Origin: a virus
Direction: 5' to 3' (one strand)
DNA length: 37,716 bases
IMG/VR virus record: IMGVR_UViG_3300045988_027439
In this document: one piece after another, positions 8,773 through 23,955 of the stretch
How positions within the stretch are numbered: the first letter of the stretch is position 1
How the letters are laid out: the number at the start of each line of letters is the position of its first letter
Notes under the pieces: model-generated
Database searches by the model: none
Seen by the model: the letters and a program-made list of their open reading frames with translations, nothing else
Told to the model about the DNA's origin: nothing
Translations under genes and position numbers: made by a program

Positions 8773-8792
8773 GACTTTCTGTCCTCCATTTC

Positions 8793-9620
8793 TTACATAC
8801 CATAAAGGTATAAATCATCAAGAATCTGCTGCTTTTCTGCCTCGATTCTCTGTTTCTCTGCCTCTGCTGCTGCATTGTTCCGGTTTTCCAATTCCGCAAT
8901 TACCGCATCGACAATGTCCTTTGTGTCGATTCCCTTGAGTGCCTCCGGAATATTGTTGTATTTCTCGAAAAAGTCAGATGCACACGCTGCAACTGCTGTC
9001 TTTTCCTCGATTTCAACATTGAAATACTGTTGCATCTTCTTACTGTCGAACCATGTCTCATTGCTCATGAGAGATTGAATTTTGTCTCTTGTGACACCCT
9101 CCTGCACATGTTCCATGTAGACATCAAGAATTGAATCCTCGCAGAGATTCAACTGCTTTATGACTGCCTTGAAATCGTCTGCATTTCCGTACGCCATGCA
9201 TAACGGTTTGTGAATCATCGCTTGAGCACCTGTTGCGAAATGCAGTTCGTCACATGCAAACATGATGACTGATGCAATGGATGCAGCCATTCCGTCAACA
9301 TATCCGACTTTGTGTCCGTCATATCGCTTTAACTGGTTGTAGATTGCTAGTCCTGCAAATACATCTCCACCGCCGGAATTGAAATAGATGTCAATGTCCT
9401 CATATCCATCTAACTGGTTGAGGAAATCTGCGATGTCCTGCGGACATCTGTCCTCCTCATACCACATAGATTCCCATGTCGCTGATACAATGTCACCGTA
9501 GAAATACAAGGAACATCTGCTCTGCTCCTCGTCCTGCTCTAAATCCAAATAGCCGACATTCTCAACTTTTCCGCTGCGTTTATTTTTCTTTGTGAAATCA
9601 AAACGTCTTTTCTTTGCCAT
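8793..9620 (-). CDS. Head maturation protease (ClpP/S14-like)
   Basis: Motifs IDIYFNSGGGDVFAGLAIYNQL and GMAASIASVIMFACD...MIHKP resemble the ClpP serine protease fold. Confidence 0.88.
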   Translation of the reverse strand: MAKKRRFDFTKKNKRSGKVENVGYLDLEQDEEQSRCSLYFYGDIVSATWESMWYEEDRCPQDIADFLNQLDGYEDIDIYFNSGGGDVFAGLAIYNQLKRYDGHKVGYVDGMAASIASVIMFACDELHFATGAQAMIHKPLCMAYGNADDFKAVIKQLNLCEDSILDVYMEHVQEGVTRDKIQSLMSNETWFDSKKMQQYFNVEIEEKTAVAACASDFFEKYNNIPEALKGIDTKDIVDAVIAELENRNNAAAEAEKQRIEAEKQQILDDLYLYGM

Positions 9621-9622
9621 GC

Positions 9623-11026
9623 TTATTCACCTCCCTCCTCGTCAGTCTCGTCCTCTGCCGTGTCGGTTTCGTCCGGTTCTGTTGCTGTGTCCGGCTGCTC
9701 TGTGTCCGGCTCTGCTTCTTCCGGCTGCTCCGGTTCTTCGGTTTCATCCGGTTCGGATGCACCTTTCAAATATGCTGCTCCCGCCATAGTCAACGGAACG
9801 ATGCTGCCATTTGCAAGCAGGACATCGCCTCCCTCCGCATCTTCCATGTCGAGTTTACGTCTTGCCTCATTCGGTTTGATAATCATTCCCCCGACACCGT
9901 TTCTCAAATATTCCATCTGTGTTTTTGAATCGGTGCGGAACAATACCTTTTCGTTGAATTTGTAATAATACCCGTCGTCTGCATCTTCATCCGGCAGCAT
10001 CTTGAAATTGATTTCCTCCTCATACTGCTTGATGATGAACAGTTCTGTGTCGACGTAAAATGATAACTGCTGCATCTCGCTGTTACTGTATGACGACTTT
10101 GAATAGTCGTTGATTTGATTCGGTTTTACCCCGAACGCTCCGGCAATTTGCAGGGCGTTATATTTTTTCAGTTCAAAGAACTGTGAATCTGTCAGTTTGA
10201 TGTCGAGAGGTGTGAGTTTCATCCCTAACGGAACGGGCAGGATTTTTCCTGTATTCTTTGCCCCGCTGCCGAACTCCTCAAACGACTTGACGAGTGCTGT
10301 TTTCGCTTTTTCGTTCAGTTCTCCGGTATATTCAAGAGTTGCCTTTGCTGTCAGACCGCTCTCATATAAGTTGTTCATGAACGCCTGTGATTCGGACGCA
10401 CCTGCAACCGTATCTCTCAATATCTGCTGCACTGGTAGTCCTGTGATTCCGTCAAAACTGAATGATGTTTTGAAGTGCATGACCTCGTCTGTGCTGAACA
10501 CATATTGACGACCGGATGTCGGGTCTGTGTAGACGTACCACAAACACCCCACTCCTGCGAATATTCCCGCATCGTCAACGACTATCTGCACACAATTTGA
10601 CTGCATGACCCACAAATCAACGATTTTGATTTCACCGCCGTATTTCTTGCGGTTAAACTTCTTTCTCATGTACACATAGGCGTTTCCGTAATGGTTGCGG
10701 TTGATTTCAACCGTGTTCCAAAATGTCGTTGGTGTCATAAACGGATTCGGTCTTTTTGAGAGCAGCTTTGAGGCGTCCGTTGCCTCTGCCTCAATGATTC
10801 CCTTGTCCGTTTTCTGATAATATTTGATAGGCATTTTCGCAAGGGTCTCCGACAACATCTTGAGACATGTGAAATATGTGACCTCTGATGTCGGTTTCCC
10901 TTTTCTTTTCAGTCCTATCCTCTCAAGGAACGTCGGTGAGTTCAGTGTCACAACGCCTCCGCTGTCCTGTGGTTCTCCTCTCCACCAATTTGAAATTTTC
11001 ACTCCTAATCTCTGAAACGGATTCAT
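9623..11026 (-). CDS. Portal protein (HK97 family)
   Basis: 467 aa, immediately after TerL. Has an acidic Glu/Asp/Pro/Thr-rich C-terminal tail. Confidence 0.88.
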   Translation of the reverse strand: MNPFQRLGVKISNWWRGEPQDSGGVVTLNSPTFLERIGLKRKGKPTSEVTYFTCLKMLSETLAKMPIKYYQKTDKGIIEAEATDASKLLSKRPNPFMTPTTFWNTVEINRNHYGNAYVYMRKKFNRKKYGGEIKIVDLWVMQSNCVQIVVDDAGIFAGVGCLWYVYTDPTSGRQYVFSTDEVMHFKTSFSFDGITGLPVQQILRDTVAGASESQAFMNNLYESGLTAKATLEYTGELNEKAKTALVKSFEEFGSGAKNTGKILPVPLGMKLTPLDIKLTDSQFFELKKYNALQIAGAFGVKPNQINDYSKSSYSNSEMQQLSFYVDTELFIIKQYEEEINFKMLPDEDADDGYYYKFNEKVLFRTDSKTQMEYLRNGVGGMIIKPNEARRKLDMEDAEGGDVLLANGSIVPLTMAGAAYLKGASEPDETEEPEQPEEAEPDTEQPDTATEPDETDTAEDETDEEGGE

Positions 11027-12826
11027 TTATTTCTCACCGCCTTTCTTCATGTATTTTTCAAATTGCTCAAGCCATTCATTGACAGTTTCATTCACATCCG
11101 GACGGTATTCCTCTTTCATTGCGTGTTTCCATGCGTCAATGATAGCGTCAATCGGGTCTATTCTCTCTGTCGTGATGTCTTTGTCAATTTTTATTTCGCC
11201 GTAGTTGTTTGAGATGGTCTTTGCGTTTGCGATAGACCACACAAGCAAGCCATCGGCAGGAACAACAATCTTGTTTCCCTCTTTTCCGACCTCTACTCCC
11301 TCGATTTCCACGTTGCCCGCCAAAATCTCAAGTCTGAAATCGACCGTCGCATCGTTCAACTCTTTCGCTGTCTGTGTAACAGAGATTGAATCGAATCCCA
11401 ACGCCTCAAGGTCTGACAGGAACGCCGATGCGTTGTGCGGGTCATAACATATCAACTGCGGTTTGAGGTCGTATTCTTTCACCAAATCCTCAAGATATTT
11501 GATGATGTATTTGTAATCTGTCTTTATTCCTCCCAGTGTCTCGGTCACTGTCACAAGACCCTTTTCAATCCATACGTCATAAGGTACTTTGTCGGTCTTG
11601 ATGTGTTCATCCACCCTTGAGGACGGAATGAACGAATGTGTGTGTACAAAATATTTCTTTACTCCGTCAACCATGAACGGAATCACGATTGCGATTGATG
11701 TCAAGTCGCCTCCGGATGACAGGTCGACCCCGACATAACACTTTGACCCTCTGAAATCCTTGAGTGATTTCAGAACGGCACATGCTTTCCATTTTGCGAT
11801 GTCCTTGATATACAGTGAATTTGACCACTGCATCCACATATTCAACTGCTTTACGAGGAAATCTCTCAAATCCTCCCCGCCCATATCACGGGCGGTATGT
11901 GCAATCGGTATGAGGTTTTCAAGAGCATCCATGTCAAATTCAAGAATTGGGTTTGCTTTTATCCAGTTCTCCGGAACATATCTGTCGTCATGTTCGTCCA
12001 TCTGTGCGATATATACGAACTGACTGTCGTTTTCAAAAACGCCCTTTAACAAATTGCAGCAATATTCATACAATTTATAACAGGGTGATTTGAGGTCGAA
12101 CCCTGCTGTCGTGATGACCGAAATCAACGCTGACTTGAGTTTCTTGATACCTCCCTCAAGCAGCTTGTACATCTGATTCGTCTTGTGTGCGTGATACTCG
12201 TCGACAATTCCCAAATATGCACGGTGTCCGTCAAGTGACTTTGTATCACCGGACAGCGCTTTGATTTCTGAATGTGTCAACAGGCAGTCAATCGTGTGGT
12301 TGTGGTCATGCACTTTGAACCATTCCGACAAATCCTCGTCCGAATTGATGAATTTTGCGACCTCGTCAAAAACAATGTTCGCTTGGTCTTGCTTGGTAGC
12401 CGTACAAAAGATTTTTCCGTACTTGTACCCGTCAAAATTCCCGTAATAACATGCCAAAATACCGTTGATGAACGATTTTCCGTTCTGTCTGCCTAATTGC
12501 ACGTAGGACGTTCTAAACCGTCTGTATGATTTTTCCTTTGTTCTCCACCCGTTGAGTGACCCTAAAATAAAGCACTGGAACGGATATGCGGTCACATGCT
12601 CGTTTTCTTCGCCCTCTGCAATGGTCAATTCCTCTGCAAAATTGATGATTTCCTCTGACTTTTCAACGTCGAAATAGTATTTGTACGGTGCTGCTTTCGA
12701 TTTCTCAATGTCGTCGAGGTGTCTTTGACATGCAAGTCGGACATATTCTCCGGCTGTTATCTTGCCCGAAACAACATCAAGGGCGTATTGTGTGCAGCGG
12801 TCTTGTGTTTCTCCTGCTTTCGCCAT
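11027..12826 (-). CDS. terL: Terminase large subunit
   Basis: 599 aa. Walker A-like QLGRQNGKS. Position between TerS and the portal gene. Confidence 0.9.
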   Translation of the reverse strand: MAKAGETQDRCTQYALDVVSGKITAGEYVRLACQRHLDDIEKSKAAPYKYYFDVEKSEEIINFAEELTIAEGEENEHVTAYPFQCFILGSLNGWRTKEKSYRRFRTSYVQLGRQNGKSFINGILACYYGNFDGYKYGKIFCTATKQDQANIVFDEVAKFINSDEDLSEWFKVHDHNHTIDCLLTHSEIKALSGDTKSLDGHRAYLGIVDEYHAHKTNQMYKLLEGGIKKLKSALISVITTAGFDLKSPCYKLYEYCCNLLKGVFENDSQFVYIAQMDEHDDRYVPENWIKANPILEFDMDALENLIPIAHTARDMGGEDLRDFLVKQLNMWMQWSNSLYIKDIAKWKACAVLKSLKDFRGSKCYVGVDLSSGGDLTSIAIVIPFMVDGVKKYFVHTHSFIPSSRVDEHIKTDKVPYDVWIEKGLVTVTETLGGIKTDYKYIIKYLEDLVKEYDLKPQLICYDPHNASAFLSDLEALGFDSISVTQTAKELNDATVDFRLEILAGNVEIEGVEVGKEGNKIVVPADGLLVWSIANAKTISNNYGEIKIDKDITTERIDPIDAIIDAWKHAMKEEYRPDVNETVNEWLEQFEKYMKKGGEK

Positions 12827-12829
12827 ACC

Positions 12830-13369
12830 TTAATTTGCATATTTCGCAAATTTATTCTCCGGCTTTTGCTGCTGCGGTTTCGGTACGACCAAACGGCAGC
12901 GTGAGGAGACTGTTAATCCGAAATCCGATGCTCCCTGTCTGCACTGTTTCATGCAGCGGTCTTGAATAATCATGAGACGCTCACGTTCACCGTTCACGAC
13001 CTGCCTTGTACCGACCTGCACACGTTCTTTTTCTCCCGTGTCCGGATTCGTCTTTGTCTCATATACCGGAACATCCTCCATCAATGGAGTTGCTCTGATT
13101 TGCTGCGTGATTTCGATGTACTGGTCTTGTGCAATGAGCAATCTCGCCAGTGCATCGCTGTCAACATTCGCAATCAGTTTGATTTCAAGTAATTCTTTCG
13201 CAATCTTCCGGAACTTTTTCTTTTGCTCCGGTGTCAAATATGACGGAGGTTTCACTTTGTTGTTCGGTGCTACAACCTCGGCGTTTTTTCGTGCCTCAAT
13301 TTCTGCTTTTGTGAGGTGTTTTCGCCCGTTCATAACAACCAAATCCGTGGGTTGTCTCTGCCCTGCCAT
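12830..13369 (-). CDS. terS: Terminase small subunit (P27 family)
   Basis: 179 aa. MAGQRQPTDLVVMNGRKHLTKAEIEARKNAE... is characteristic of P27-family small terminases. Confidence 0.8.
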   Translation of the reverse strand: MAGQRQPTDLVVMNGRKHLTKAEIEARKNAEVVAPNNKVKPPSYLTPEQKKKFRKIAKELLEIKLIANVDSDALARLLIAQDQYIEITQQIRATPLMEDVPVYETKTNPDTGEKERVQVGTRQVVNGERERLMIIQDRCMKQCRQGASDFGLTVSSRCRLVVPKPQQQKPENKFAKYAN

Positions 13370-13413
13370 GTAGCAACAAACCCCCTTTCCGTCAACATTT
13401 CAGTGATTTTGTG

Positions 13414-13956
13414 TCACATTCTGACACCCCTTTCGGATGTACCTTTCTGCTGAAATTCCCGTGGGGAGTTTTCTCCAAACAAAAGAGGGGGTGCGACTAG
13501 AAATGAATCGCACAAAACTTTTTTATATCCCCCTGCCTCTCGAAAGTGGTACTCAATCAGTGATCTCAACTGTTTCTGTGTTGCTCTCATGCTCGCTTTG
13601 CTCTGCTTATACAGAGCCGTGATTGTATTGTGTGTTTTATGATTGAGAGGTATGAGGTTGAACGGATTCAAACGCTGCTCCCAGTCGTCCTCAAGTTCAA
13701 CGATATGGTGAACAGGATTGCATGTGAGTAGTTCATGTTCGACATATAATGCGTATATATCTACGTTGTCATAGACCTCAATGATACGTTCCCGCATCGC
13801 CCGCCATTCCTTTGATACATAGAACTCCGCTGCTCTCTCGTCTCGCCGTGTGTTGTTGTATATCATGTGTCTCGACTGCTGCTGCCGTTCACATTCCTCG
13901 CACATCTTCATCGACTGCGGAATCAGCTTGCCACACCTGCATGATTTCAAAAGCAT
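13414..13956 (-). CDS. HNH endonuclease (packaging-associated)
   Basis: Cys pairs CRCG...CEEC and an HNH core HHIVELEDDW...NLIPLNHKTHN. Lies directly upstream of terS, as in HK97-like cos phages. Confidence 0.85.
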   Translation of the reverse strand: MLLKSCRCGKLIPQSMKMCEECERQQQSRHMIYNNTRRDERAAEFYVSKEWRAMRERIIEVYDNVDIYALYVEHELLTCNPVHHIVELEDDWEQRLNPFNLIPLNHKTHNTITALYKQSKASMRATQKQLRSLIEYHFREAGGYKKVLCDSFLVAPPLLFGENSPREFQQKGTSERGVRM

Positions 13957-14147
13957 CTGTGTTCTCCTCTCTTTCTTGGTTCTCCTGCTTTGTTATCCAC
14001 AAGAGGCGGGCAGTTATGCACATTACTGTGTATACTTACCCGCATATAACAGGAGGGCAAACAGGCAGGAAAAAAGCGACTGCATATCTGCAATCGCTCA
14101 ACTCAACTGTTCACGCTAACATATTAGCACTTTCATTTCGTCTTTTG

Positions 14148-14230
14148 TTCACCCACTTTTCACCCCTATTTTCACCTTCATTTCACCCTGTTTTCACTCC
14201 GTTTCTATCGTTTTCAATCGCTTTTGCACC
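14148..14230. repeat. Helically phased array of TTTTCAC(C) / GGTGAAAA motifs (7 units, about 11-bp period)
   Basis: CAC cores at 14150, 14161, 14173, 14184, 14195, (14215), 14227. The array spans the 3' end of the activator gene and the start of the 226-nt gap before HNH. Confidence 0.8.
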
Positions 14231-14626
14231 AAATAATTTGATTGACAGACGTTGAATCATAACCTTGCACCACTTTTTCGGTGAGTTGCGTCCGCAGCCT
14301 GTCTCCCTCACTATATCCTCGTATGTTTTGCCCTTGATATATACCGCCTCAAGTGCGTCATACTTGTACCCCTCACCTGCTGCCTCTGCATCTTCTTTTA
14401 GCGATGCAAGAGCCTGTTTGAGATGCTCGAACAGAATGACCGTCTCTGCACGGCACTCTCTGACTGATTGCAGAAACGCTCTCTCTGCTGATATGTTGTA
14501 TTTGCTTATGTTTGGCACTTGAGAGGTCTCTGACACTGCCTCTTTGATGTATCGTTCCATTTCACGATAGTTTTCGAGATATAGCAGGGTTTTGTCAATG
14601 ACTGTCTGCTCCTTTTCCTCTTTCAT
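14183..14626 (-). CDS. Putative late-gene transcriptional activator, sigma-70 region-4-like HTH (RinA/ArpU-type position)
   Basis: 147 aa. The C-terminal stretch YIKGKTYEDIVRETGCGRNSPKKWCKVMIQRLSIKL resembles a sigma r4 HTH. It is the last gene before the HNH/terminase block. RBS GAGGAG. Confidence 0.5.
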   Translation of the reverse strand: MKEEKEQTVIDKTLLYLENYREMERYIKEAVSETSQVPNISKYNISAERAFLQSVRECRAETVILFEHLKQALASLKEDAEAAGEGYKYDALEAVYIKGKTYEDIVRETGCGRNSPKKWCKVMIQRLSIKLFGAKAIENDRNGVKTG

Positions 14627-14969
14627 GCTTTCTCCTCGCTTTCTGCTTTCGTCTCATAGGCAGACCGTGCATTTTACGCCAGTTATTTGTATCTCGGCGA
14701 TTTGTGCATCCTTGCGAACCGCTCATTTTCATAATTGCCGTTTTTACCTGCTCCGCTGTGACCCCCGTTTGCATGACCGCCTCGGCGAACTGTTCTGCTG
14801 TTGTCTTTGCTTTGATTTCCGGTTTTTTATATTCCTTTTTTTCTGCGATGCCCTTATTAACTGTTGCTTTATCTGCTGCCTGTTCGATCATGTTTGAGAT
14901 TTCTTTTTCTGTCTTTCCGGCTTTTCTAAAATGCTCAATCACGCTTTTCACGATGCTCATAATTCCCAT
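14595..14969 (-). CDS. Hypothetical protein with a basic C-terminus
   Basis: 124 aa. AAGGAGGAG lies 9 nt upstream. The 3' end overlaps the next gene by 32 nt. No family recognised. Confidence 0.5.
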   Translation of the reverse strand: MGIMSIVKSVIEHFRKAGKTEKEISNMIEQAADKATVNKGIAEKKEYKKPEIKAKTTAEQFAEAVMQTGVTAEQVKTAIMKMSGSQGCTNRRDTNNWRKMHGLPMRRKQKARRKHERGKGADSH

Positions 14970-14992
14970 ATTATCACGCTCCTCCTTTCCGT

Positions 14993-15421
14993 TTACACAA
15001 AAGGGAGTTGTTCGTCAACGCCGTCCGGAATATTCATGAATCCGTCTCCTGCATCCGTATAATCTGCATTTTGTCCCTGTTCTCCCGCTGCTTTCTTACT
15101 TTCCGCAAATTCCTGTTCCTCAATCACAACATCTGTCGTATAAACCCGCTGTCCGTCTCTGTTTGTGTATGAGCCTGTCTGAATCCTGCCTGTGACAACG
15201 ATTTTCGTTCCCTGTTTCAAATGTTTCTCTGCAAATTCGCCATTTCTGCCAAATGCAACGCATGAGATGAAATCTGCGGACGGTTGCCCGTCCCGCTGCC
15301 CCCAACGATCAACCGCCAGAGTGTAACGTGCCACGCACATGGATTCCTGCGAACTGTTCTGCTGCGTATATCTGACATTCGGGTCTCTTGTGAGTCTCCC
15401 CATCAATATGACTTTATTCAT
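14993..15421 (-). CDS. ssb: Single-stranded DNA-binding protein
   Basis: OB-fold N-terminus MNKVILMGRLTRDPNVRYT and an acidic tip ending DEQLPFV. Confidence 0.92.
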   Translation of the reverse strand: MNKVILMGRLTRDPNVRYTQQNSSQESMCVARYTLAVDRWGQRDGQPSADFISCVAFGRNGEFAEKHLKQGTKIVVTGRIQTGSYTNRDGQRVYTTDVVIEEQEFAESKKAAGEQGQNADYTDAGDGFMNIPDGVDEQLPFV

Positions 15422-16007
15422 TTGCCGTTCCCGTCCTTTCTCTCTGCATCACATACTCATTTTGCATCTTCTGCAATCTGACGAGACCTTTTTTGAACTC
15501 AAGATCATCGCCATTCATGCAGACATCGAATATTTTCTCATAATCAACAATGTGCATCTTGATGAACTCTGCCTCTGCTGCCGTCCGGCTCTCATTGATG
15601 AACATTCCCTTGACTGCCTCTTTTATCATCTCGCAATGGGTCTTTTCCTCCTCTGACTGTGGCGGTGTGCTTTCGATCATGCGGTCATAGACTTTGTCAA
15701 TCGCCCCTGCAATCAGTTCTCTCCAACCTTTGCCCTTTTCCCCGATTAACTGGTTTTCAATGTCCTCAAATCGGTTTCCGTGTCCTGCTGCTACGATGCG
15801 GATGTCCTTTTTGCCCTTTGCTGCAATCAGAATCAAATCGTCATCGTATGCTTCCATGTAATAGTCAAATTTTGCATCGAAATTCTCTCTCGGATTGATG
15901 ATGATTTCCGGCTGACTGTTTCCCTCCGTCTTGATACTCACTCCGATGTATTTCGCATCCTTGATTTTCGCATTGATAAATTCTGCCTTTAATGTGCTTT
16001 TGTTCAT
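15414..16007 (-). CDS. Hypothetical protein
   Basis: 197 aa. ATGA-coupled to the upstream gene with a GGAGGAG RBS. No motif recognised. Confidence 0.55.
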   Translation of the reverse strand: MNKSTLKAEFINAKIKDAKYIGVSIKTEGNSQPEIIINPRENFDAKFDYYMEAYDDDLILIAAKGKKDIRIVAAGHGNRFEDIENQLIGEKGKGWRELIAGAIDKVYDRMIESTPPQSEEEKTHCEMIKEAVKGMFINESRTAAEAEFIKMHIVDYEKIFDVCMNGDDLEFKKGLVRLQKMQNEYVMQRERTGTANE

Positions 16008-16577
16008 GCTGCTCCTCCATTCACTAATCTGTTGAGTAACTGTTCATACATGGTCTTGTATGTGTCTCTTTCTGTCTGCAATCGGATTGTCTCCTCTGAT
16101 GATGCTGTGTTTTCCGGCTTTACATTTGCCTTTTCTTTCAATTCCTGCTCCATCGCTTGAATCTTGTTGCGATAGAGTTCGATTTCCTCCTGTTGATTCT
16201 TGATTGTCTCATTGTATTTCTTTGAGGTTTTCATGCTGCTGTCAAGCTGCAAGGAAATCATGAGAGCGATGTCGATGTTCTCCATCTCTTTGTCTGTACA
16301 CTCCCCGATATACGTTCCGATGCGTTCTGTTGATACCGAATAGACCTGTTCACACAAAACGGTGCTTGGTCTGCCCGTCGATCTCACTGTCACATGCGTC
16401 GGAAGATCTGTTTTCGGCTGTGTGGTCATATATACAATTTCAACGACATTACTGTTCTCATTGTTCTTGTTATTGCTCACAATGACCGCCGGACGGTCGG
16501 AGTGCTGCTCGCTCCCGCTATACGATGCCCCCCCCTCTGCTGATATAGAACATTTCGCCTCTCTTGATGTTATCCAT
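16004..16577 (-). pseudogene. PemK/MazF (EndoA)-family toxin gene with C-terminal coiled-coil extension, interrupted by a frameshift in a G8 (plus-strand C8) tract
   Basis: The ATG at 16577 (GGAGG 7 nt upstream) gives MDNIKRGEMFYISRGGGIV*, ending at 16518. Removing one G gives MDNIKRGEMFYISRGGASYSGSEQHSDRPAVIVSNN...LPTHVTVRSTGRPSTVLCEQVYSVSTERI...IDIALMISLQL. This aligns along its length with my recollection of B. subtilis EndoA (KRGDVY..GSEQGGVRPVLVI..LPTHVEI..SVILLEQIRTIDKQRL..ALQISLAL). Confidence 0.85.
16528..16535. repeat. C8/G8 homopolymer at the MazF frameshift site
   Basis: Counted directly: gatgCCCCCCCCtctg. Confidence 0.95.
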
Positions 16578-16876
16578 CACAATTCCTCCTTTTTTATCAC
16601 TCTATACAGTCTTTTTGCCTTGATATATTCCTTGTATTCTTCATCGGTCATCATCACAATATTTGTTTTGTCCTTTATATCTTCCGTAAACTGTTCTTTG
16701 CTTTTTCCGTACACATCCGCACCAAAAATCCGCAGATGTTTAACTAAAGTCTTTCCTCTGATGATTCCCTCTCTGATAATTTTTCCGTCCTCCGTTTCTG
16801 TGTCCTCAAATCTTTTCAATGTGTAATTCAGCGAGAACTCCATTGCTGCCAAAATCGGGTCTTTTATCTCTGTCAT
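16577..16876 (-). CDS. Hypothetical protein (99 aa), translationally coupled (TGATG) to the MazF-like gene; possible antitoxin by position only
   Basis: ATG at 16876, just after the ParB-like stop. Its stop overlaps the MazF ATG by 1 nt. No RHH/AbrB motif recognised. Confidence 0.5.
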   Translation of the reverse strand: MTEIKDPILAAMEFSLNYTLKRFEDTETEDGKIIREGIIRGKTLVKHLRIFGADVYGKSKEQFTEDIKDKTNIVMMTDEEYKEYIKAKRLYRVIKKEEL

Positions 16877-16877
16877 T

Positions 16878-18197
16878 CTACGCCTCACCGTCTTTCATGA
16901 GTTTGGTTGCCATGATGCAATATCCGTCCTCAATTCCGGTGTAGTCCTCAAGAATATACGTCACAAGCACCTTGACCATGCGTCCGGTGTTCTTCCCGTC
17001 TGCAAATTCCATCATCTCAAGAATGTCGCCTTTTTTATAGCCTCTGTCATTCTTCTGGAGTTCAAATGTTTTGATTCCGTTTGCCACATCATCGAAATAA
17101 GGCTTTGCAAGGCGTATCTGATGCACTTTCTGTCCGGTCTCCTGTGTATCTGACGGGAGACTCTGCATCTTCTCCTCCTGCTCCATCTCACGGAGTTTTT
17201 TCTTTGTCTCACGGTCGATTGCATCCTGCTCCTCTGAATATCTCTGCTCGTCGGTCTTGTACGCCTCCGCACGGTTGTTGTACTGGTCGCATGAGGTACA
17301 TGTTCCGGTCTTGACATTGCATGTCTCATATTCGGTGCAGGAATAGCAAATGGATGTGATTCCCTCCGGATGCGGTGTCTCGTAATCGTCGCCCGCTCTT
17401 ACTTCCGGAGGATTCATGCTGCTTTCTGCTGTGTCGGATTCTGACACCTGCTGCCCCGCTGCTTTCGCTTCTTTCATGTCTTTCACTTCTTTATGTGTCA
17501 GTTCTCCGGTCTCTGCGAATTTTCCCAGTGCCTCACGCTGCTCGTCCTCTGTCATTCCGCTCAATTCATAAGCTGCGGAGAATGTGAGACGTTCTTTCTT
17601 GAGTTCTTCCCTCCATTCCGGAATCAGATTGTTGTTGACTGCCTCAATCTGTGCAATCTTCGTTTTGCTCATGTGCAGCATCGAGGAAATCACATCTCTC
17701 AACCGTCCAGATTGCAGGTCATATCCCTTGATTTTTTTCCCTGCTGCTTTCATACGCTCAAGAGATGCCTTGAGGCGTGTTTCCTCCTCGATCATGTCAG
17801 AAATGGTCTTTGTACGGTATGCGTTGGCGATGATGATTTCAACCTGCTCCTCGTCATCATCCTGCGGTGTGGTCAATTTACTTGTTGCCAGTTCAAAGTC
17901 GTTATATCCCTTTGATACGAGGTACTTGAGAGCCTCCCATCGTCTTTCACCTGCGACGATTCTGTATTCGCCCTTTTCGCATGGTGCATATACGAGTTCG
18001 AGGTTCTGTTTCAAACCGGACAGGAGGATATCTCCTGCCAGTTCTTCGATGTCCTTGACACTGTAAAAATTCATGGTGTTGCGGTACATCTTGAAAATCG
18101 AAATGTCCTTTGTCCGGAATCTCGCTCTCGGAGATTCGTCAATTCCTGCTTTGCTGTTTTTGTTGAGTGCGTCTTTGACGCTGAATCCTGCTGCCAT
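16878..18197 (-). CDS. ParB-like N-terminal domain protein fused to a Cys-rich linker and a C-terminal DUF3850/ASCH-like domain
   Basis: ParB box YRIVAGERRWEALKYL. HTH-like MSKTKIAQIEAVNN. Cys cluster ICYSCTEYETCNVKTGTCTSCDQY. C-terminal VHQIRLAKPYFDDVANGIKTFELQKNDRGYKKGDILEMMEF resembles DUF3850 (ASCH fold). Confidence 0.75.
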   Translation of the reverse strand: MAAGFSVKDALNKNSKAGIDESPRARFRTKDISIFKMYRNTMNFYSVKDIEELAGDILLSGLKQNLELVYAPCEKGEYRIVAGERRWEALKYLVSKGYNDFELATSKLTTPQDDDEEQVEIIIANAYRTKTISDMIEEETRLKASLERMKAAGKKIKGYDLQSGRLRDVISSMLHMSKTKIAQIEAVNNNLIPEWREELKKERLTFSAAYELSGMTEDEQREALGKFAETGELTHKEVKDMKEAKAAGQQVSESDTAESSMNPPEVRAGDDYETPHPEGITSICYSCTEYETCNVKTGTCTSCDQYNNRAEAYKTDEQRYSEEQDAIDRETKKKLREMEQEEKMQSLPSDTQETGQKVHQIRLAKPYFDDVANGIKTFELQKNDRGYKKGDILEMMEFADGKNTGRMVKVLVTYILEDYTGIEDGYCIMATKLMKDGEA

Positions 18198-18215
18198 CTG
18201 TTCACCCTCCTGCTG

Positions 18216-18638
18216 TTACTCTGTGAGTTTCTGTTTTTTTGTCTCGGTACGTTCGACGTTGTTTTCGCCCTTGCTATTCTGCGAAATAGAGGCTTTCACG
18301 CCTCCACGGAGGTTCAATGTGACCTTTGCCAGTCCTCCGGTGTAAATCTCCTCGACCGCTGCCTTGAGAATCTTCACAATTCCCTCTCCGCATCTCTTGT
18401 CCGGTGCTGCTGCCTCTCCGAACAGTGCAGCGACGTTCTGCATCGCCTTTTCTTTCCTCTGTTTCTCTTTCTGATATTCAACTGCATCCGGACAATTACA
18501 TGTCATGGTTGCCTGTTCCTCTGCCTGTGCTGCTGTCAGTTCTTCGTCTGCCTCAATCTGCGTCATTTGACCGCAGAATCTGCATTTTGCTGTTTTCACA
18601 ATATTTCCCATGCGTTTTTCCTCTCTTTCCGGTCTCAT
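18216..18638 (-). CDS. Hypothetical Cys-containing protein (start at 18638 or at MGNIVK, 18611)
   Basis: 140 aa. CRFCGQ...CNCPD suggests a small zinc-binding motif. Both candidate starts are plausible (ATGA overlap versus GAGAGGA RBS). Confidence 0.5.
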   Translation of the reverse strand: MRPEREEKRMGNIVKTAKCRFCGQMTQIEADEELTAAQAEEQATMTCNCPDAVEYQKEKQRKEKAMQNVAALFGEAAAPDKRCGEGIVKILKAAVEEIYTGGLAKVTLNLRGGVKASISQNSKGENNVERTETKKQKLTE

Positions 18639-19021
18639 GCGACCTCATGCAAAATAATTTTTCTGAATATGCTCTCGAATATTGGAACGGCGATGCTGTT
18701 TCCTGCTTGGTCGTATAATGCTTTGTAATACTTCCCGTTTCTTTTCTGCACCGCTTTCGCCCTGTCGAAATCCTCGTCCGTGTACCCCATCAACCGCCAA
18801 CACTCACGCTCAGTCAAATAACGATAGCGTCCATCGCCTCGGTCGATGACCTGTGCGGGTGTCCGGTCTTGTCTCGTTGTGATGGTATATGCACATTCTT
18901 TGATAACCGTCGCCCTGCGGATGCCTTTTTCTCCGATACATGCAAGGACGGACGGTTGTGTCACGTTGTAAACATCCGGAACACTTGCATCGTCCTCAAG
19001 AAACTCCTGCAAATTACGCAT
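18635..19021 (-). CDS. C5-cytosine DNA methyltransferase, C-terminal part (TRD + motifs IX-X)
   Basis: RYLTERECWRLMGY (motif IX) and QAGNSIAVPIFE (motif X). The frame stays open upstream and reads FEFDDLIRTPMRNLQEF. Confidence 0.85.
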   Translation of the reverse strand: MRNLQEFLEDDASVPDVYNVTQPSVLACIGEKGIRRATVIKECAYTITTRQDRTPAQVIDRGDGRYRYLTERECWRLMGYTDEDFDRAKAVQKRNGKYYKALYDQAGNSIAVPIFESIFRKIILHEVA

Positions 19022-19029
19022 CGGCGTTC

Positions 19030-19617
19030 TTATGAGGTCATCAAATTCAAATTTTCTCCATTCAGAGCAGAAACTGTGAACACTCGCTCTCTCGCTTGTG
19101 GCAATCCGAACTCTCTTGCATCCAGTACCTCAAAATTATTCGTATATCCCAATCGCTCCATTTCAACCATGTATCTGTCAAAATTCGGTCTCATGTACTT
19201 TGATTTCACATTCTTCACGTTTTCCCATATCACATAACGAGGTCGCCATTCGCCCATATTCTCAATGATATGTATTGTCTCCCACATGAGAGAGGAACGT
19301 GTTCCGCTCCCCTCGTCTGAACCTTTGCCTCGGTTGATTCTGCCCTCTCCTGTCGCCTTTCCTTGATGTCCTGCAATGCTCATGTCTTGGCAAGGTGAGC
19401 CATGAATCAGAATGTCCGGTTTCAGATTCCATCCGACAACCGTTTGTGTTTTATATGCCAGTTCCTCACGGAACATTGAATTGTACGAACGCACCGCCTT
19501 TTCATTGATTTCCACATAGTCGATTGCTTTTGTCGGAATGTTCAAATTTCTCAAGGCACATCGAGGCGACCCAATCCCTCCGAATAACTCAAGGATTTGT
19601 ATTGTCTCGTTTTCCAT
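19030..19617 (-). CDS. C5-cytosine DNA methyltransferase, N-terminal part (motifs I-VIII)
   Basis: ELFGGIGSPR (motif I), HGSPCQDMSIAG (motif IV), VIWENVKN (motif VI), QARERVFTVS (motif VIII). Ends at a TAA shortly after the A4T3 run. Confidence 0.88.
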   Translation of the reverse strand: MENETIQILELFGGIGSPRCALRNLNIPTKAIDYVEINEKAVRSYNSMFREELAYKTQTVVGWNLKPDILIHGSPCQDMSIAGHQGKATGEGRINRGKGSDEGSGTRSSLMWETIHIIENMGEWRPRYVIWENVKNVKSKYMRPNFDRYMVEMERLGYTNNFEVLDAREFGLPQARERVFTVSALNGENLNLMTS

Positions 19618-19620
19618 GCC

Positions 19621-20400
19621 TTACCCCTCCATTTCCTTGAGTAACTCATGTACAACGCATCTGTAATCTTGAGACACGATTCCACGCTTTGAAAATTTCG
19701 GGAGCGGTATCATTGCCGTTGTTGATTTCTCCGCAACAATGGAACGGCGAACCGGAGTGACAAACATGTCAAATCCGGATTCTGCTTTCAACCACTCCTC
19801 AACCTCAAGAGATGTCTTGTTTTTCTGTCGCATTGTCATGAGTGCCTTGATTCTCAAGTCCGGATTGATGTCTCTCAAGTCCTCAATCTGCTCCTCAAGG
19901 TTCTGCAATGCCTCGATTTCATATCCCCCGACCTTTACCGGAGCAATAATGAGTTCTGTTGCAATCAGAATGTTAATGACCACCATGTCAAGCAGTCGAC
20001 CACAATCGCAAATGCAATAATCGTATGCGTCCGCTACCTCCTCCAACGCCTCACGCAATCGTGTGACTTGATTGTCCTCTGACTTGAGCAGCAAATTCAT
20101 GTCCGTCTGCATGAGATAGCCATTTGCCGGAATGATGTCAACGTGCGAATATTCTGTCGGGCGAATCAGATCACTCGTTTTGTATGTACCGCCGACGCAT
20201 TCATGTTTCTCAAGCAGCTCACTCATTCCGATTCCGTCCGATTCAAATACTCCGAACGTCTTTGATGTATCGCCCTGCGGGTCTCCATCTAACACAAGCA
20301 CTCTTTTCCCCTGTTCCTCGCCCAACATATAAGCGATTGAATCGGATGTCGTCGTTTTCCCGATTCCTCCCTTTGGTGACATCACTGCAATAATTCTCAT
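19621..20400 (-). CDS. parA: ParA/Soj-family partition ATPase
   Basis: Deviant Walker A MSPKGGIGKTTT, followed by VLVLDGDPQGD. 259 aa. Confidence 0.88.
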   Translation of the reverse strand: MRIIAVMSPKGGIGKTTTSDSIAYMLGEEQGKRVLVLDGDPQGDTSKTFGVFESDGIGMSELLEKHECVGGTYKTSDLIRPTEYSHVDIIPANGYLMQTDMNLLLKSEDNQVTRLREALEEVADAYDYCICDCGRLLDMVVINILIATELIIAPVKVGGYEIEALQNLEEQIEDLRDINPDLRIKALMTMRQKNKTSLEVEEWLKAESGFDMFVTPVRRSIVAEKSTTAMIPLPKFSKRGIVSQDYRCVVHELLKEMEG

Positions 20401-20425
20401 GTTGATTCCTCCTGTTATTGTCCTG

Positions 20426-20875
20426 TTATTTTATTTTCCCGTCCTTGAGGATGCTGTTGTTCGGGATGCTCATGTTCAGACTTCTCTCCCTGTGTGCTGA
20501 ATCCGACAAATTCAGATATTCCTCAATAACCTTGATTGCCTCCTCTGCTGAATAGCAGGTTGCAACAAAATGTCCGGCTGCTGCCATGTCTGCAAGGAAC
20601 TCTTTCTGTGTCTCCTGCTGCCTGTTGTTGCCGAATTTCATCTCGACGAACAACCCGCAGTATGAACCTTTCGGATATGGGAGTTGTAAGTCGGAAACGC
20701 CCGCCTTGACACCCATCTGTTTGAATTTCACCGCCTCCGCTCTGTTCCTGCTGCCTCCATTCGGCACATGGAACAACCACTTCAATTCCGGATAACGGTT
20801 CATGTTCCATCCCGCCCATGACACGACGTTGATTTGCTCCGTGTCCTCACTTCGTTTCGCATATCTCATGTTCAT
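20426..20875 (-). CDS. VRR-NUC domain nuclease
   Basis: LFHVPNGGSRN...GVSDLQLPYPKGSYCGLFVEMK matches the VRR-NUC catalytic pattern. Start moved to the ATG at 20875 (GAGGAGG 9 nt upstream) in place of the track start at 20971. Confidence 0.8.
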   Translation of the reverse strand: MNMRYAKRSEDTEQINVVSWAGWNMNRYPELKWLFHVPNGGSRNRAEAVKFKQMGVKAGVSDLQLPYPKGSYCGLFVEMKFGNNRQQETQKEFLADMAAAGHFVATCYSAEEAIKVIEEYLNLSDSAHRERSLNMSIPNNSILKDGKIK

Positions 20876-20990
20876 TTGCTTTCGCCTCCTCTTTGCACAT
20901 GTCATAATATTCGCAGAACAGACACACATGTTTGCAGTCCTTGACCTTGAGCATGTGTCTGATTTTCTCAATGATTTCTCCTGCCCTCAC
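20847..20990 (-). CDS. Small Cys-rich protein (47 aa), not on the ORF track
   Basis: GTG at 20990 (GTGA overlap with the SLT stop, GGAGGTG upstream). Translation VRAGEIIEKIRHMLKVKDCKHVCLFCEYYDMCKEEAKANEHEICETK. It looks more protein-like than the R/S/C-rich N-terminal extension of the 181-aa track ORF. Confidence 0.35.
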   Translation of the reverse strand: MRAGEIIEKIRHMLKVKDCKHVCLFCEYYDMCKEEAKANEHEICETK

Positions 20991-21724
20991 TTTCCGACCA
21001 CCTCCTCAATCTCTTTCATCCTCTGCATGATTGCACTGTTGTACGAATACACATACACTCCGTTGCTCCACAAATGTTCCCTTGCACCTTTTTCACCGTA
21101 GTTGTACGCTGCAAGCGCATCCTGCACCGTGCCGTATTTCTTGAGCAGGTATGAGAGGAAATCAATCCCAACCCTCACATTTTGATACGGATTCATGAGG
21201 TCGGTGCATCCTAACCTCTGCATCCGGTCGGTGTGCCATTTCTCATATATCTGCATATATCCCTTTGACCGCCCGCCGTCTCCGACCTTGTCAAATTCAT
21301 ATCCGGATTCATGCTCTATGAGTGCCAACGCAAGGGCATACGGAACGTCATTTTGCTTGCACAGGCATCTTGTGTATATCTGCATTTTCTCCGGAAAATA
21401 GCCTTTATCTGCATACTGCTCCGGCAGGTCATAATATATGAACCCCTCAAGATCACAACTGCCCCAGTCCTCGGACATGGTGTCAAAAACCTTGTATTTG
21501 CTTTCGGTCTCCTCTGCCGTCTGCACGATTGTTTCCGGATTCTGCACCGTTTCCGCATGTGTCGTCTCCTCCTGCGTTGTCTCCTGCTGCCTCTCCTCGA
21601 TCTGCTCCGGCTTTTTGCTGCCGAACACTGCCACGCACAACACTGTCACAACTCCTGTGACCACGATCACACGAAACGTATTACGTCGCCTTGCTCGTCT
21701 TGCCCGTCTTTTCCGTCTTTTCAC
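20987..21724 (-). CDS. Membrane-anchored lytic transglycosylase (SLT domain)
   Basis: N-terminus has KRRKRRARRARRR followed by a transmembrane segment (VIVVTGVVTVLCVAVFG). SLT motifs LIEHESGY, GYMQI, AAYNYG. GTG start 7 nt after AAGGAGG. Confidence 0.8.
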   Translation of the reverse strand: MKRRKRRARRARRRNTFRVIVVTGVVTVLCVAVFGSKKPEQIEERQQETTQEETTHAETVQNPETIVQTAEETESKYKVFDTMSEDWGSCDLEGFIYYDLPEQYADKGYFPEKMQIYTRCLCKQNDVPYALALALIEHESGYEFDKVGDGGRSKGYMQIYEKWHTDRMQRLGCTDLMNPYQNVRVGIDFLSYLLKKYGTVQDALAAYNYGEKGAREHLWSNGVYVYSYNSAIMQRMKEIEEVVGK

Positions 21725-22637
21725 CTTGCAGCCTCCTTTTTCTCATTCGTGCATGTATGTAAAACATGCAATTAAAATTGTTGTAGTACACGTTTGCGTT
21801 CGTGAAATCCATGTCCGGATACCACTTTCCCAAAATCTCCGGAATTGAATCCCTGTCTTTGACCATTCCATCAACAAATGAGCCTATTTTTTTATAGCTG
21901 CCTCCTGCTGCCGGACGTTTGGAATGTACGACCTTGATTCGTGGGTCTCTCAATCCCTGCGAACTGTTCCATCTCCTTTCCGACGGAACACGGTTCTTTT
22001 CTTCGACGATATAGTTCGCCATGCCAGACAGACCATTTTCATCCGTCTGCAATCTACGAACCTCATTCCTGCTTGACTGTTTCCAACATGATTCAACCGT
22101 CTCCATGTCCAACGCACCGTCCATGACAATGTGATGATGCCATCTGATTTCCGCATCCGGATTGTATGCGGTCACATAGACATATTTTGTGTTCGGGAGA
22201 CCCCTCTTTTTCCTCTGATAGTTGATGCGTCGGATGTACTTTTGCACATTCTTGATTGCTGCATCCACATCCCCGTCCGGTGGGAGGTGTGCGTCATCAT
22301 AGGTCAACGTCATCCAAATATCACGATCACTGAAATTCTCATTGATTAACCTCTCAACGTATTTCCGTGCGTTCTTGTCATTCAGATTCTTTTGAGCCTT
22401 GTTATTGTCTTTCTTGATAGTTCTCCCCTCCGGAGGTACTTCATCCATACTCCGGAACTGCGGGTATATCTCAATCTCAAACTGATCTCCTGCGGTTATC
22501 TCTTTCAAGGCATATACAACTTTCTTTCTGTGTTGGAACAGGTTCTCAATAAACCATTCGTGCATTTCCTCCAACGATTTGTTATATGCTGCCTCATAAT
22601 CATACGGGATGAACTGCATCCTTTTTTTTCTTGCCAT
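21681..22637 (-). CDS. Rolling-circle replication initiator (HUH endonuclease, pC194/phiX-type motifs)
   Basis: Motif I IWMTLTYD, motif II (HUH) RWHHHIVMDG, motif III GMANYIVEEK. Start set to the ATG at 22637 (AGGAGG 10 nt upstream) in place of the track start at 22700. Confidence 0.65.
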   Translation of the reverse strand: MARKKRMQFIPYDYEAAYNKSLEEMHEWFIENLFQHRKKVVYALKEITAGDQFEIEIYPQFRSMDEVPPEGRTIKKDNNKAQKNLNDKNARKYVERLINENFSDRDIWMTLTYDDAHLPPDGDVDAAIKNVQKYIRRINYQRKKRGLPNTKYVYVTAYNPDAEIRWHHHIVMDGALDMETVESCWKQSSRNEVRRLQTDENGLSGMANYIVEEKNRVPSERRWNSSQGLRDPRIKVVHSKRPAAGGSYKKIGSFVDGMVKDRDSIPEILGKWYPDMDFTNANVYYNNFNCMFYIHARMRKRRLQGEKTEKTGKTSKAT

Positions 22638-22747
22638 CTGACACATGCCTCCTATATAGGTTTTCGTAGACTTGTTATTATCTATTACAAGGACGCTCAA
22701 ACCTCCGAAAACCCTGTATTTTCACGACTTCTCCGGTCGTTTTCGAG

Positions 22748-22776
22748 TTGCTTTTTCGTGTCAGATTTGCTATAAT
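22748..22776 (+). promoter_or_regulatory. Sigma-A-type promoter TTGCTT-17-TATAAT on the plus strand (antisense to the early operon)
   Basis: -35 at 22748..22753, a 17-nt spacer, and a consensus -10 at 22771..22776. Confidence 0.55.
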
Positions 22777-22782
22777 ATCTTT

Positions 22783-22851
22783 TTAGTGATAGCGACTGAC
22801 ACAATCAGTCAAATCAAGGACGACCACTGCAATGGTTGTCCTTTTTCTTTT
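22783..22851 (+). ncRNA. Candidate ~70-nt antisense sRNA (countertranscript) upstream of rep
   Basis: Predicted start about 7 nt after the -10. Hairpin 1 is GACTGA-cacaa-TCAGTC (22794..22810). Hairpin 2 is AAGGACGACCA-ctgcaa-TGGTTGTCCTT (22816..22843), followed by TTTTCTTTT, which makes an intrinsic terminator on the plus strand only. No ORF. Confidence 0.4.
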
Positions 22852-22876
22852 GTTCTCATGCTCCTGCTTTATGTAT

Positions 22877-22905
22877 GCCCCGCCACCGTGACGGGGCGTT
22901 TTTAT
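22877..22905 (+). terminator. Second plus-strand intrinsic terminator
   Basis: GCCCCG-ccaccgtga-CGGGGC followed by GTTTTTATT. On the minus sense there is no U-tract. Confidence 0.5.
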
Positions 22906-23087
22906 TAAACGGCTGCAACTGCCTCTTTCTGTTCCCATCTGCGACGCTCCTCTGCTTTTCCCGCTGCCTTACCCTCGGCATACGCAGACATCACCATAAT
23001 GGTCATTGATTTTCCCTCAAGGTCGTCAATATTCATGAATTTTTCTGCCATGCTCTCAATCACTGCCTTTTTCTCATTTCTTGTCAT
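22905..23087 (-). CDS. Hypothetical small protein (60 aa)
   Basis: ATGA-coupled to the upstream HTH gene. GGAGGTG lies 7 nt upstream. Confidence 0.55.
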   Translation of the reverse strand: MTRNEKKAVIESMAEKFMNIDDLEGKSMTIMVMSAYAEGKAAGKAEERRRWEQKEAVAAV

Positions 23088-23305
23088 TTCTCAACACCTC
23101 CTCGGATTCGCTCAATCTCTTTTTCTATGTTCTTTCCGGAATAATCTGCAAGCAGTTTTTCCGAAATGTGATACGTCCAAATTGAGGACATCTGCACCGC
23201 CGTTCCTATCGGGAGTTTTCCCTGTTGCATTGCTACCCTCACAAATTGCGGTGACACATTGAGGATTGCTGCTGCCTCTGTCGGCAATATTCGTCCTATA
23301 TCCAT
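23084..23305 (-). CDS. Small HTH DNA-binding protein (excisionase/MerR-like HTH)
   Basis: Start set to the ATG at 23305 (GGAGG 7 nt upstream). MDIGRILPTEAAAILNVSPQFVRVAMQQGKLPIGTAV resembles the Xis-type HTH pattern. Confidence 0.6.
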   Translation of the reverse strand: MDIGRILPTEAAAILNVSPQFVRVAMQQGKLPIGTAVQMSSIWTYHISEKLLADYSGKNIEKEIERIRGGVEK

Positions 23306-23556
23306 CTTGATTCCTCCTGTTGGTGGTTCTCTCGGTCTTTTCATCCCGTCCACCTGCTTTCCGGCATTGTCTACCGTGTTGATGCTTTTCGCCTTAAAAA
23401 TCATCGAAAACCTGTTGACTGACCATGCACTTTCTAGCAGGTGCGACCGCTGCCATGTTTCCCACGGTATCGCTGACGCTGTCTTTCGGCTTGCCATCGT
23501 CAGAGTGTCGGTTGCCGTCCGAACACTGACGGGGCGACTGTTGCCCCGTTTCGGCT

Positions 23557-23691
23557 TTAGTAAAATGAATCCCTCTGCATTTCGTCGTCAACTTCTTTCG
23601 GTATCTGGATAGGCTCGAAATCATCGTTTTTCTCGTTCCAATAATCAAATAACTCTTTTATGTACTGGTTCAATGTCTCTGCATTGCTCAT
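23557..23691 (-). CDS. Hypothetical small acidic protein (44 aa)
   Basis: ATG at 23691, 7 nt after AGGAGG. The track's longer start lacks an RBS. Confidence 0.45.
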   Translation of the reverse strand: MSNAETLNQYIKELFDYWNEKNDDFEPIQIPKEVDDEMQRDSFY

Positions 23692-23712
23692 TTCTGTTCC
23701 TCCTGCTCTTTC

Positions 23713-23741
23713 TTGTCCTGCTACATCTCCTGCCATATAAT
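23713..23741 (+). promoter_or_regulatory. Candidate plus-strand promoter TTGTCC-17-TATAAT
   Basis: -35 at 23713..23718 and a consensus -10 at 23736..23741. Lies 40 nt upstream of the small plus-strand ORF. Confidence 0.4.
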
Positions 23742-23781
23742 AAATGTGCAACCATTCTCAAATGACAGGAGGTGAAATGCT

Positions 23782-23955
23782 GTGGACGATTATGAAAATT
23801 TGTATAAGGATGTCAGCAATCAGAATGTTGACACCGCCGAACTTGAGCGTCGTAAAAAAGAACGTTATCAAAACCGTTTCAATTATTACAATAGTGTTGT
23901 TGCAACCCTCGCTTTGATTCTTTCGATTATCGGTATAATCTTAGGATTAAACTGA
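23782..23955 (+). CDS. Small tail-anchored membrane protein (57 aa), not on the ORF track
   Basis: GTG at 23782, 9 nt after AGGAGG. Translation (M)DDYENLYKDVSNQNVDTAELERRKKERYQNRFNYYNSVVATLALILSIIGIILGLN. The C-terminal transmembrane segment is paralogous to that of the convergent gene. Confidence 0.5.
   Translation: MDDYENLYKDVSNQNVDTAELERRKKERYQNRFNYYNSVVATLALILSIIGIILGLN

Follow-up and report, generated by a model that had tools for sequence, protein, structure and literature searches.

The whole stretch of DNA analysed here, the 37,716-nucleotide IMG/VR virus record IMGVR_UViG_3300045988_027439 (the window), carries on its minus strand, at 16004..16577, a MazF/PemK-family gene whose reading frame is broken by a run of G. 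The gene is of the phrog_1936 type, belongs to a temperate phage and is present as a frameshifted (OFF) allele, as assigned by PF02452, phrog_1936 and the identity of the repaired protein to P0121/WP_178811378.1. From the ATG at 16577..16575, which is preceded at a distance of 7 nucleotides (nt) by a putative GGAGG ribosome-binding site (16585..16589, minus strand), 14 codons lead into exactly eight G (G8; C8 on the plus strand, 16528..16535), and the minus-strand sequence across the tract reads ATGGATAACATCAAGAGAGGCGAAATGTTCTATATCAGCAGA-GGGGGGGG-CATCGTATAG. The tract occupies codons 15-17 (Gly-Gly and the first base of Ala) in the β1-β2 loop, and its common in-frame state is G7. In frame 0, translation of this 5' fragment (16518..16577, minus strand) gives MDNIKRGEMFYISRGGGIV*, 19 codons followed by TAG. 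From the tract onwards, the +1 frame stays open as far as the TGA at 16006..16004 and reads ..GGASYSGSEQHSDRPAVIVSNN..LPTHVTV..ALMISLQL... It comprises the toxin body (16004..16527, minus strand), in which the Arg of the catalytic site (DRPAV) and the TTQ motif are followed by a coiled-coil linker and by ERDTYKxMYEQLL, the conserved helix at the C-terminus. Of this body, gene callers annotate no more than 16004..16480, corresponding to 158 amino acids (aa). Removal of one G (G7) produces an open reading frame (ORF) of 190 aa and addition of two (G10) an ORF of 191 aa. The original prediction, made from the letters of the window, had described a MazF/PemK-type gene out of frame by one nucleotide at the G8 run, which is confirmed by the frames and by homology, and had stated that 7 or 10 G would give an intact protein; both lengths occur in nature. 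G8 is the sole G/C homopolymer of at least 6 nt in the window. Since a first-order Markov (Markov-1) expectation is ~ 0.3 C8 per window, one C8 would not be surprising from composition alone, and its significance therefore rests on the comparative data and on its location inside a gene, where a G/C homopolymer of at least 7 nt (G7/G8) sets the reading frame.

The repaired (G7) ORF matches Pfam PF02452 (PemK_toxin) with an E-value (E) of 4.8e-22 and 78.7 bits (cut-off 23.1), residues 5-109 aligning with profile positions 1-109 of 109; as encoded in the window, this domain is split at codon 17. The protein also matches phrog_1936 'MazF-like growth inhibitor' (5.1e-47, residues 1-188), and its nearest solved structures are MazF from S. 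aureus (4mzm, 2mf2) and EndoA/MazF from B. subtilis (4mdx, 1ne8) with E ~ 1e-10 over residues 2-113. The MazF-like nature of the downstream frame, which had been left beforehand to the verdict of a homology search, was thus upheld. In the alignments with these structures, R28 (DRPAV) and T51 (the first Thr of TTQ) coincide with the Arg and Thr that are catalytic in Bacillus and Staphylococcus MazF, which we take from published structures to be Arg25 and Thr48 in B. subtilis MazF numbering. R28 and T51 are both invariant in a 29-member family alignment. Like S. aureus and B. subtilis MazF/EndoA, the phage protein has the GSEQ..RP motif, the catalytic Arg, TTQ/Thr and the LPTHV motif, but it differs from them by an extra C-terminal tail of ~ 77 aa (coiled coil and ERDTYKxxYExLL helix). 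The tail had been predicted to be an unusual coiled coil of ~ 50 aa; besides being longer, it is the family norm. Family members consist of a MazF domain (1-112), an indel-rich coiled-coil linker and the invariant terminal helix, the long phage MazF proteins of phrog_1936 match over the full length including the tail, and a full HMMER scan yielded, at E ≤ 1e-30, 159 clusters (50% identity), most of which measure 160-225 aa, with alignments that reach residue ~ 185. Against PDB sequences, the tail gave only non-significant coiled-coil matches. The score for the NCBIfam MazF equivalog was 34 bits, far below the cut-off of 120, and the PADLOC defence-system models matched neither the toxin nor four neighbouring proteins. 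Among the cultured-phage records of INPHARED one partial, unannotated match was found (MT835666.1). The exact repaired protein is public (P0121 = WP_178811378.1, on 325 contigs) and labelled 'type II TA system PemK/MazF family toxin', where TA stands for toxin-antitoxin. Judged by its sequence, the gene is a phage-borne MazF/PemK-family endoribonuclease homologue with a family-typical helical C-terminal tail.

The tract varies in length among relatives of the phage. Whole collections were scanned by a pattern with fixed flanks, in which the tract length was left free. In metagenomes (41 contigs) we found G7 in 31 cases, G8 in six, and G6, G9, G10 and A + G9 once each, corresponding to 8/41 out of frame. 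The IMG/VR collection (81 contigs) contained G7 in 55, G8 in 18 and G6 in three contigs, G9 and G4 in one contig each, and three interrupted in-frame tracts, with 22/81 out of frame. Both censuses together comprise 86 G7, 24 G8, four G6, two G9 and six other in-frame tracts, i.e. 30 of 122 contigs (25%) are out of frame; across data sets this share is ~ 18-27%. The exact 158-aa OFF product (16004..16480 in the window) was found in 156 blocks/85 contigs, including the RefSeq entry WP_306778014.1 from Agathobacter rectalis, and the exact ON protein in 690 blocks/325 contigs. Ten OFF contigs that were read had G8 (seven), G6 (two) or G9 (one). In a second genotype, all nine of nine contigs had G8, and the exact 191-aa protein corresponded to G10 in 4 samples. 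The isolate genome of Bariatricus sp. SGI.154 has G6 and that of Agathobacter sp. LCP21S3_B2 has G7. The tract is restricted to a sub-clade of phrog_1936 with at least 64% identity to the toxin; relatives with at most 49% identity are without it, and more distant members of phrog_1936 encode the loop differently.

Out-of-frame alleles are spread over closely related backgrounds. They are found with each of the three gene arrangements upstream and with either variant downstream (GCA or GTG, i.e. CA/TG), typically differ by 1-5 single-nucleotide polymorphisms (SNPs) per 6.3 kb flank from a G7 contig, and are often nearer to G7 than to other OFF contigs. For example, contig L055 (G9) is 1 SNP and the window 4 SNPs away from contig L076 (G7). 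In 112 census contigs with full flanks of 250 nt on each side, 13 flank haplotypes (500 nt identical) were recurrent, and 7 of these 13 had more than one tract state. Tract length, which ranges from G4 to G10, is thus recurrently polymorphic among near-identical genomes. Control A/T runs of 6-7 nt at the same loci are near-invariant (37/37, 20/20, 19/20 and 5/6). Related DNA of 586 kb contains 87 G/C runs of at least 7 nt, and the MazF tract site accounts for 80 of them. No association of OFF alleles was apparent with contig size class (integrated versus phage-only), OFF making up 16-24% in every length bin, or with the methylase frameshift described below, since the split methylase is found only in the window and in contig L061. 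The option of slipped-strand ON/OFF switching put forward in the original prediction fits these data on near-identical backgrounds. We consider it likely that this is a real, recurrent slippage polymorphism which generates ON and OFF alleles of a MazF homologue.

Homopolymers are the classic place for insertion and deletion (indel) errors, and if the true tract of the window were G7, its gene would simply be intact. Over 12.9 kb the window is 99.8% identical to the IMG/VR contig L001, with 24 SNPs and just two indels, namely the G tract (G7 in L001) and an A that is missing from the window near 19051. The missing A shortens an A5 run of the minus strand to A4 (19051..19054), and this 1-nt deletion splits a gene for a C5 cytosine DNA methylase (18635..19617) into ORFs of 195 aa (19030..19617) and 128 aa (18635..19021). 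An intact methylase of 327 aa is encoded in 11/12 related loci and in L001; the lesion is common only to the window and L061. This further 1-nt homopolymer deletion relative to a 99.8% identical contig speaks for an error. However, the independently named contig L061 (ERZ1034027, metaSPAdes, coverage 24.8) matches the window without a difference over 6315 nt and has both G8 and the split methylase, which argues that both lesions are real. Furthermore, OFF lengths occur in ~ 25% of contigs from the MEGAHIT, metaSPAdes, Logan and IMG/VR pipelines as well as in RefSeq and isolate genomes, the T6-T8 runs of the window agree with its relatives wherever these are covered, and two indels against L001 are few for 12.9 kb. 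An error is therefore very unlikely. The argument that other homopolymers of the window are in frame, which had been taken to speak against a generally error-prone assembly, is incomplete, as it overlooked the frameshift in the methylase. The G8 of the window is a real, heritable OFF allele.

The term OFF presupposes that the G8 allele is not translated to full length. It is highly improbable that G8 still yields the complete toxin by +1 ribosomal slippage on GGG_GGG_G or by slippage of RNA polymerase, in which case OFF would rather mean low. G8 would allow tRNA-Gly to re-pair in the +1 frame, and transcriptional slippage on homopolymers is known in bacteria. However, ~ 75% of the relatives are in frame at the level of DNA, so the shifted state is not conserved and does not have the character of a programmed frameshift. 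No slow codon or stop codon follows directly after the shift site and no stimulatory element was detected there, the run is shorter than typical transcriptional-slippage tracts, and the OFF lengths G6 and G9 would need different shifts. Gene callers annotate products of 158 aa (from the GTG at 16480) and, in the TG variants with a GTG directly after the tract, of 174 aa, which could be taken as functional N-terminally truncated proteins, e.g. a dominant-negative or regulatory subunit that keeps the helical tail. We regard this as exceedingly improbable, because the 158-aa product is without strands β1-β2 and the catalytic Arg28, the internal GTG in the window is not preceded by a Shine-Dalgarno sequence, and the start position varies between variants.

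The MazF domain is under strong purifying selection, with a ratio of non-synonymous to synonymous substitutions (dN/dS) of 0.04-0.17; for the lineages with a tract that are most distant from the window, dS rises to 1.6-2.0. All of these deep lineages keep GGGGGGG, including those with other surrounding codons and with CGA instead of AGA for the Arg just before the tract. Only six of 27 conserved four-fold codons have the same third base in 7 lineages, and the glycines of the tract account for two of these six; none of the four other conserved Gly codons keeps its third base across the 7 lineages. GGG is the rarest Gly codon in the phage (12%), and GGG-GGG is used in none of 54 Gly-Gly pairs (0/54, 32 genes tallied). 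These data suggest that the G run itself is maintained.

On this basis a mechanism can be proposed. When DNA is replicated, the poly-G at codons 15-17 would be especially prone to slipped-strand mispairing. The ON state with the full 190/191-aa protein would correspond to G7 and, in rare cases, to G10 or G4, and the OFF state to G6, G8 or G9, where translation would end after ~ 19 codons, before the catalytic Arg. Tract length changes faster than the flanking DNA gains substitutions, so that about three quarters of the copies across the phage lineage are ON and about one quarter OFF. Mutability itself might have been selected as a form of bet-hedging, producing subpopulations of phages or lysogens that express the toxin and others in which it is silent. 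That the polymorphism represents such adaptive, reversible phase variation, i.e. an evolved bet-hedging device, is possible but uncertain in our view. More comprehensively, and rather tentatively, we hypothesize that selection maintains a hypermutable tract in widespread temperate phages of Lachnospiraceae, whose populations would continually produce ON and OFF forms and whose toxin would be neutralised without a classical adjacent antitoxin. Neutralisation may then be accomplished by the toxin's own conserved C-terminal helix or by a syntenic 197-aa protein encoded downstream.

The same polymorphism could arise without any switch under selection, simply at a mutational hotspot. In this case the G run would be an accident of encoding Arg-Gly-Gly-Ala, OFF alleles would be frequent losses of function in a dispensable or mildly costly accessory gene, tolerated briefly or purged, and reversibility would be non-adaptive. 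G8 is far more frequent than G6 and G9, as would be expected if G7 simply slips by one step, interrupted tracts occur, and there are other inactivated relatives, one with a stop codon in the TTQ motif and one reduced to a deletion remnant. Furthermore, a second poly-G (G7/G8) at another Arg-Gly-Gly motif, in a neighbouring gene of some relatives, is also found frameshifted, which suggests that poly-G is generally unstable in this system. A mere accident of coding is, however, difficult to reconcile with the persistence of GGGGGGG despite saturated synonymous divergence, with the use of a rare Gly codon and with the drift of the other conserved Gly codons. The OFF alleles are without a second lesion, the 158 aa of their tail being those of the ON protein. 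The dN/dS values show that the gene matters, and synonymous change should have removed a deleterious hotspot. We consider a hotspot of this kind possible but likewise uncertain.

Several observations weigh against the proposed slippage polymorphism and its reading as a selected switch of a toxin. The test of tract conservation is modest (~ p = 0.03 by internal control), and the lineages compared share ancestry. Interrupted in-frame, 'locked-ON' alleles (GGGGAGG, GAGGGGG, AGGGGGG and GGGGGAG) occur and demonstrate that the tract is not indispensable. Reversion from OFF to ON is at most suggested, by the G10 alleles in 4 samples, which presumably arose via G8 and G9. All tract lengths are those of assembled contigs and not read counts, and the contigs are not all independent owing to overlapping databases, time-series samples and the many contigs from IMG/VR set 3300045988. 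The second, private frameshift in the methylase could mean that the window is a decaying or lower-quality copy. Ribonuclease activity and toxicity of the repaired protein are presumed, the latter from homology. The AlphaFold2 (AF2) model of the toxin, calculated from a shallow alignment, has a predicted local distance difference test (pLDDT) score of 52 and is too poor for judging an SH3-like barrel fold or docking of the helix. Finally, no cognate antitoxin was identified.

The candidate suggested as antitoxin in the original prediction was the upstream ORF of 99 aa (orf99, 16577..16876, minus strand), whose stop codon overlaps the toxin start as TGATG, as predicted. The suggestion is not supported and orf99 is rejected as antitoxin. 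In a synteny table of related loci orf99 stands beside the toxin in only 14/49 cases and does not co-occur with it as a cognate antitoxin would; elsewhere there is a short non-coding gap or an unrelated ORF of 113 aa, and the toxins of loci without orf99 are ~ 90% identical. Only 39 homologues of orf99 were found, all with at least 69% identity, and it had no sequence match in Pfam, PHROG, PADLOC, NCBIfam or PDB.

The downstream gene of 197 aa (15414..16007, minus strand; phrog_34936), whose start overlaps the toxin stop as ATGA, directly follows the toxin in nearly all relatives with at least 64% identity; in the exception, L084, a gene of 254 aa is inserted between the two. Its product has 422 homologues and gave no match to Pfam, PHROG functions, PADLOC, NCBIfam or PDB sequences. 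The AF2 model (pLDDT 87) shows an α/β N-terminal domain and a helical bundle, for which Foldseek against PDB returned no fold match at E ≤ 0.001, and the protein may have a new fold. Apart from synteny, nothing ties the 197-aa gene to neutralisation of the toxin. Antitoxin folds (AbrB/MazE, ribbon-helix-helix, helix-turn-helix or Phd) were found neither for orf99 nor for the 197-aa protein. As to a promoter of its own, no promoter- or terminator-like site was found on the minus strand near the toxin gene, the counts of such sites were not above those in shuffled sequences, and the genes overlap as in a long operon. On sequence evidence, therefore, the gene encodes a MazF homologue, but a canonical type II TA pair is not demonstrated.

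Both upstream ORFs can be fused to the toxin. At its end, orf99 has a run of six A (16590..16595, minus strand) that is in phase as A_AAA_AAG (GTG ATA AAA AAG GAG GAA TTG TGA). This run was A6 in 15/15 census loci with matching flanks. In other relatives the run is A7, which joins the 99-aa ORF to the toxin in one frame and gives proteins of 290 aa, of which at least 7 variants exist (DNA checked for L083-L087); in two of the five checked loci the G tract is interrupted as well. In the zero frame, A_AAA_AAG is a slippery heptamer of the dnaX type, and a -1 shift on it would make exactly the A7-type fusion. In L190-L194, compared with L017, L019, L026, L032 and L041, a change from TAA to CAA (GGAGGTAAAAATCAATG to GGAGGCAAAAATCAATG) fuses the unrelated 113-aa upstream ORF to the toxin, and the resulting 317-aa proteins are encoded on many contigs. 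N-terminal fusions to the toxin are thus repeatedly tolerated.

In a few Gram-negative pathogens, phase variation by homopolymers is a textbook phenomenon of surface and restriction-modification genes. Descriptions of it in phages of Gram-positive gut commensals, or in toxin genes, are scarce to our knowledge. A literature search on phase-variable MazF, on TA systems and on homopolymers in gut phages found nothing specific. The phage locus resembles the contingency loci of Campylobacter jejuni, Neisseria and Haemophilus in having an intragenic G tract of at least 7 nt near the 5' end, in which changes of ± 1 switch the frame, and in being polymorphic among otherwise identical genomes. In contrast to these loci, the target in the phage is a cytoplasmic toxin-like RNase rather than a surface or restriction-modification gene, and the tract is a single one in the phage genome and not part of a genome-wide repertoire; in C. 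jejuni, 29 loci with G/C tracts of at least 7 nt are described (PMC4965091). The phage locus differs further in belonging to a temperate phage with Gram-positive gut Lachnospiraceae as hosts. With addiction modules such as pemIK/kis-kid of R100/R1 and phd-doc of P1, it shares a MazF/PemK toxin on a mobile element with ParA- and ParB-like proteins. However, it is without an identifiable labile antitoxin partner, and the phage encodes an integrase, so that plasmid-style maintenance is not established. From S. aureus and B. subtilis MazF/EndoA the phage gene differs by the lack of an adjacent MazE-like gene, and it is part of an early operon rather than an autoregulated two-gene module as in S. 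aureus and B. subtilis MazF. The mechanism is classical, and the setting, a toxin-like RNase gene in a widespread temperate gut phage of Gram-positive hosts, appears unreported in the literature searched.

In public metagenomes, natural alleles of both states, ON and OFF, already number in the hundreds and share one genetic background, by which the role of a phage-borne MazF-like protein, the circumstances under which it is costly to phage or host, and bet-hedging by phages become open to test. For annotation, the 158-aa and 174-aa 'PemK/MazF toxins' reported by pipelines are the 3' parts of frameshifted alleles, and in this MazF family it would be a mistake to take the upstream ORF for the antitoxin.

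The window (1..37716) looks like a complete, circularly permuted temperate-phage genome, in which tail genes leave at the right end and resume at the left. It encodes an integrase (25434..26486) and a ParA-like protein (19621..20400), and synteny with Pfam-annotated contigs places a terminase (Terminase_4) at 12830..13369. Repressors and a replication initiator are also encoded, and ORFs from ~ 1 to 12.8 kb have putative portal, capsid and tape-measure roles, judged from their size and position. The toxin sits in the early/replication operon with the order ParA, methylase, ParB-like protein (ParB_N + DUF3850), orf99, MazF, 197-aa gene and single-stranded DNA-binding protein. Since an integrase and ParA-/ParB-like proteins are both encoded, the mode of maintenance (integrated or plasmid-like) is ambiguous. 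Named hosts of relatives are Lachnospiraceae, namely Agathobacter, Bariatricus, Blautia and 'Ruminococcus sp.'.

Individual relatives show further changes. In L049, from a Lachnospiraceae metagenome-assembled genome, the Gln of the catalytic TTQ motif is replaced by a stop codon (~ 6150). In L053 (6001..6429, Blautia luti MSK.16.34) the N-terminal half of the toxin is deleted and the tail is fused to the end of a methylase ORF. L010, L042 and L047 have a second poly-G at an Arg-Gly-Gly motif (GAACCTCCGA + G7/G8) in a 131-aa gene upstream of the ParB-like gene; this tract is G7 in two loci and G8, and frameshifted, in L042, and the counterpart gene of the window is without a tract.

At the right end of the window, genes for an endolysin, a reverse transcriptase and the distal tail are found. 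The reverse transcriptase gene (RVT_1, 30739..32124) adjoins a pair of 118-nt repeats with 88% identity (32250..32367 and 32511..32628), one of which lies between this gene and a 448-aa ORF of the tail region and the other at the 3' end of that ORF. About half or more of the mismatches between the repeats are at adenines of the intergenic copy, and the reverse transcriptase together with the repeat pair likely represents a diversity-generating retroelement.

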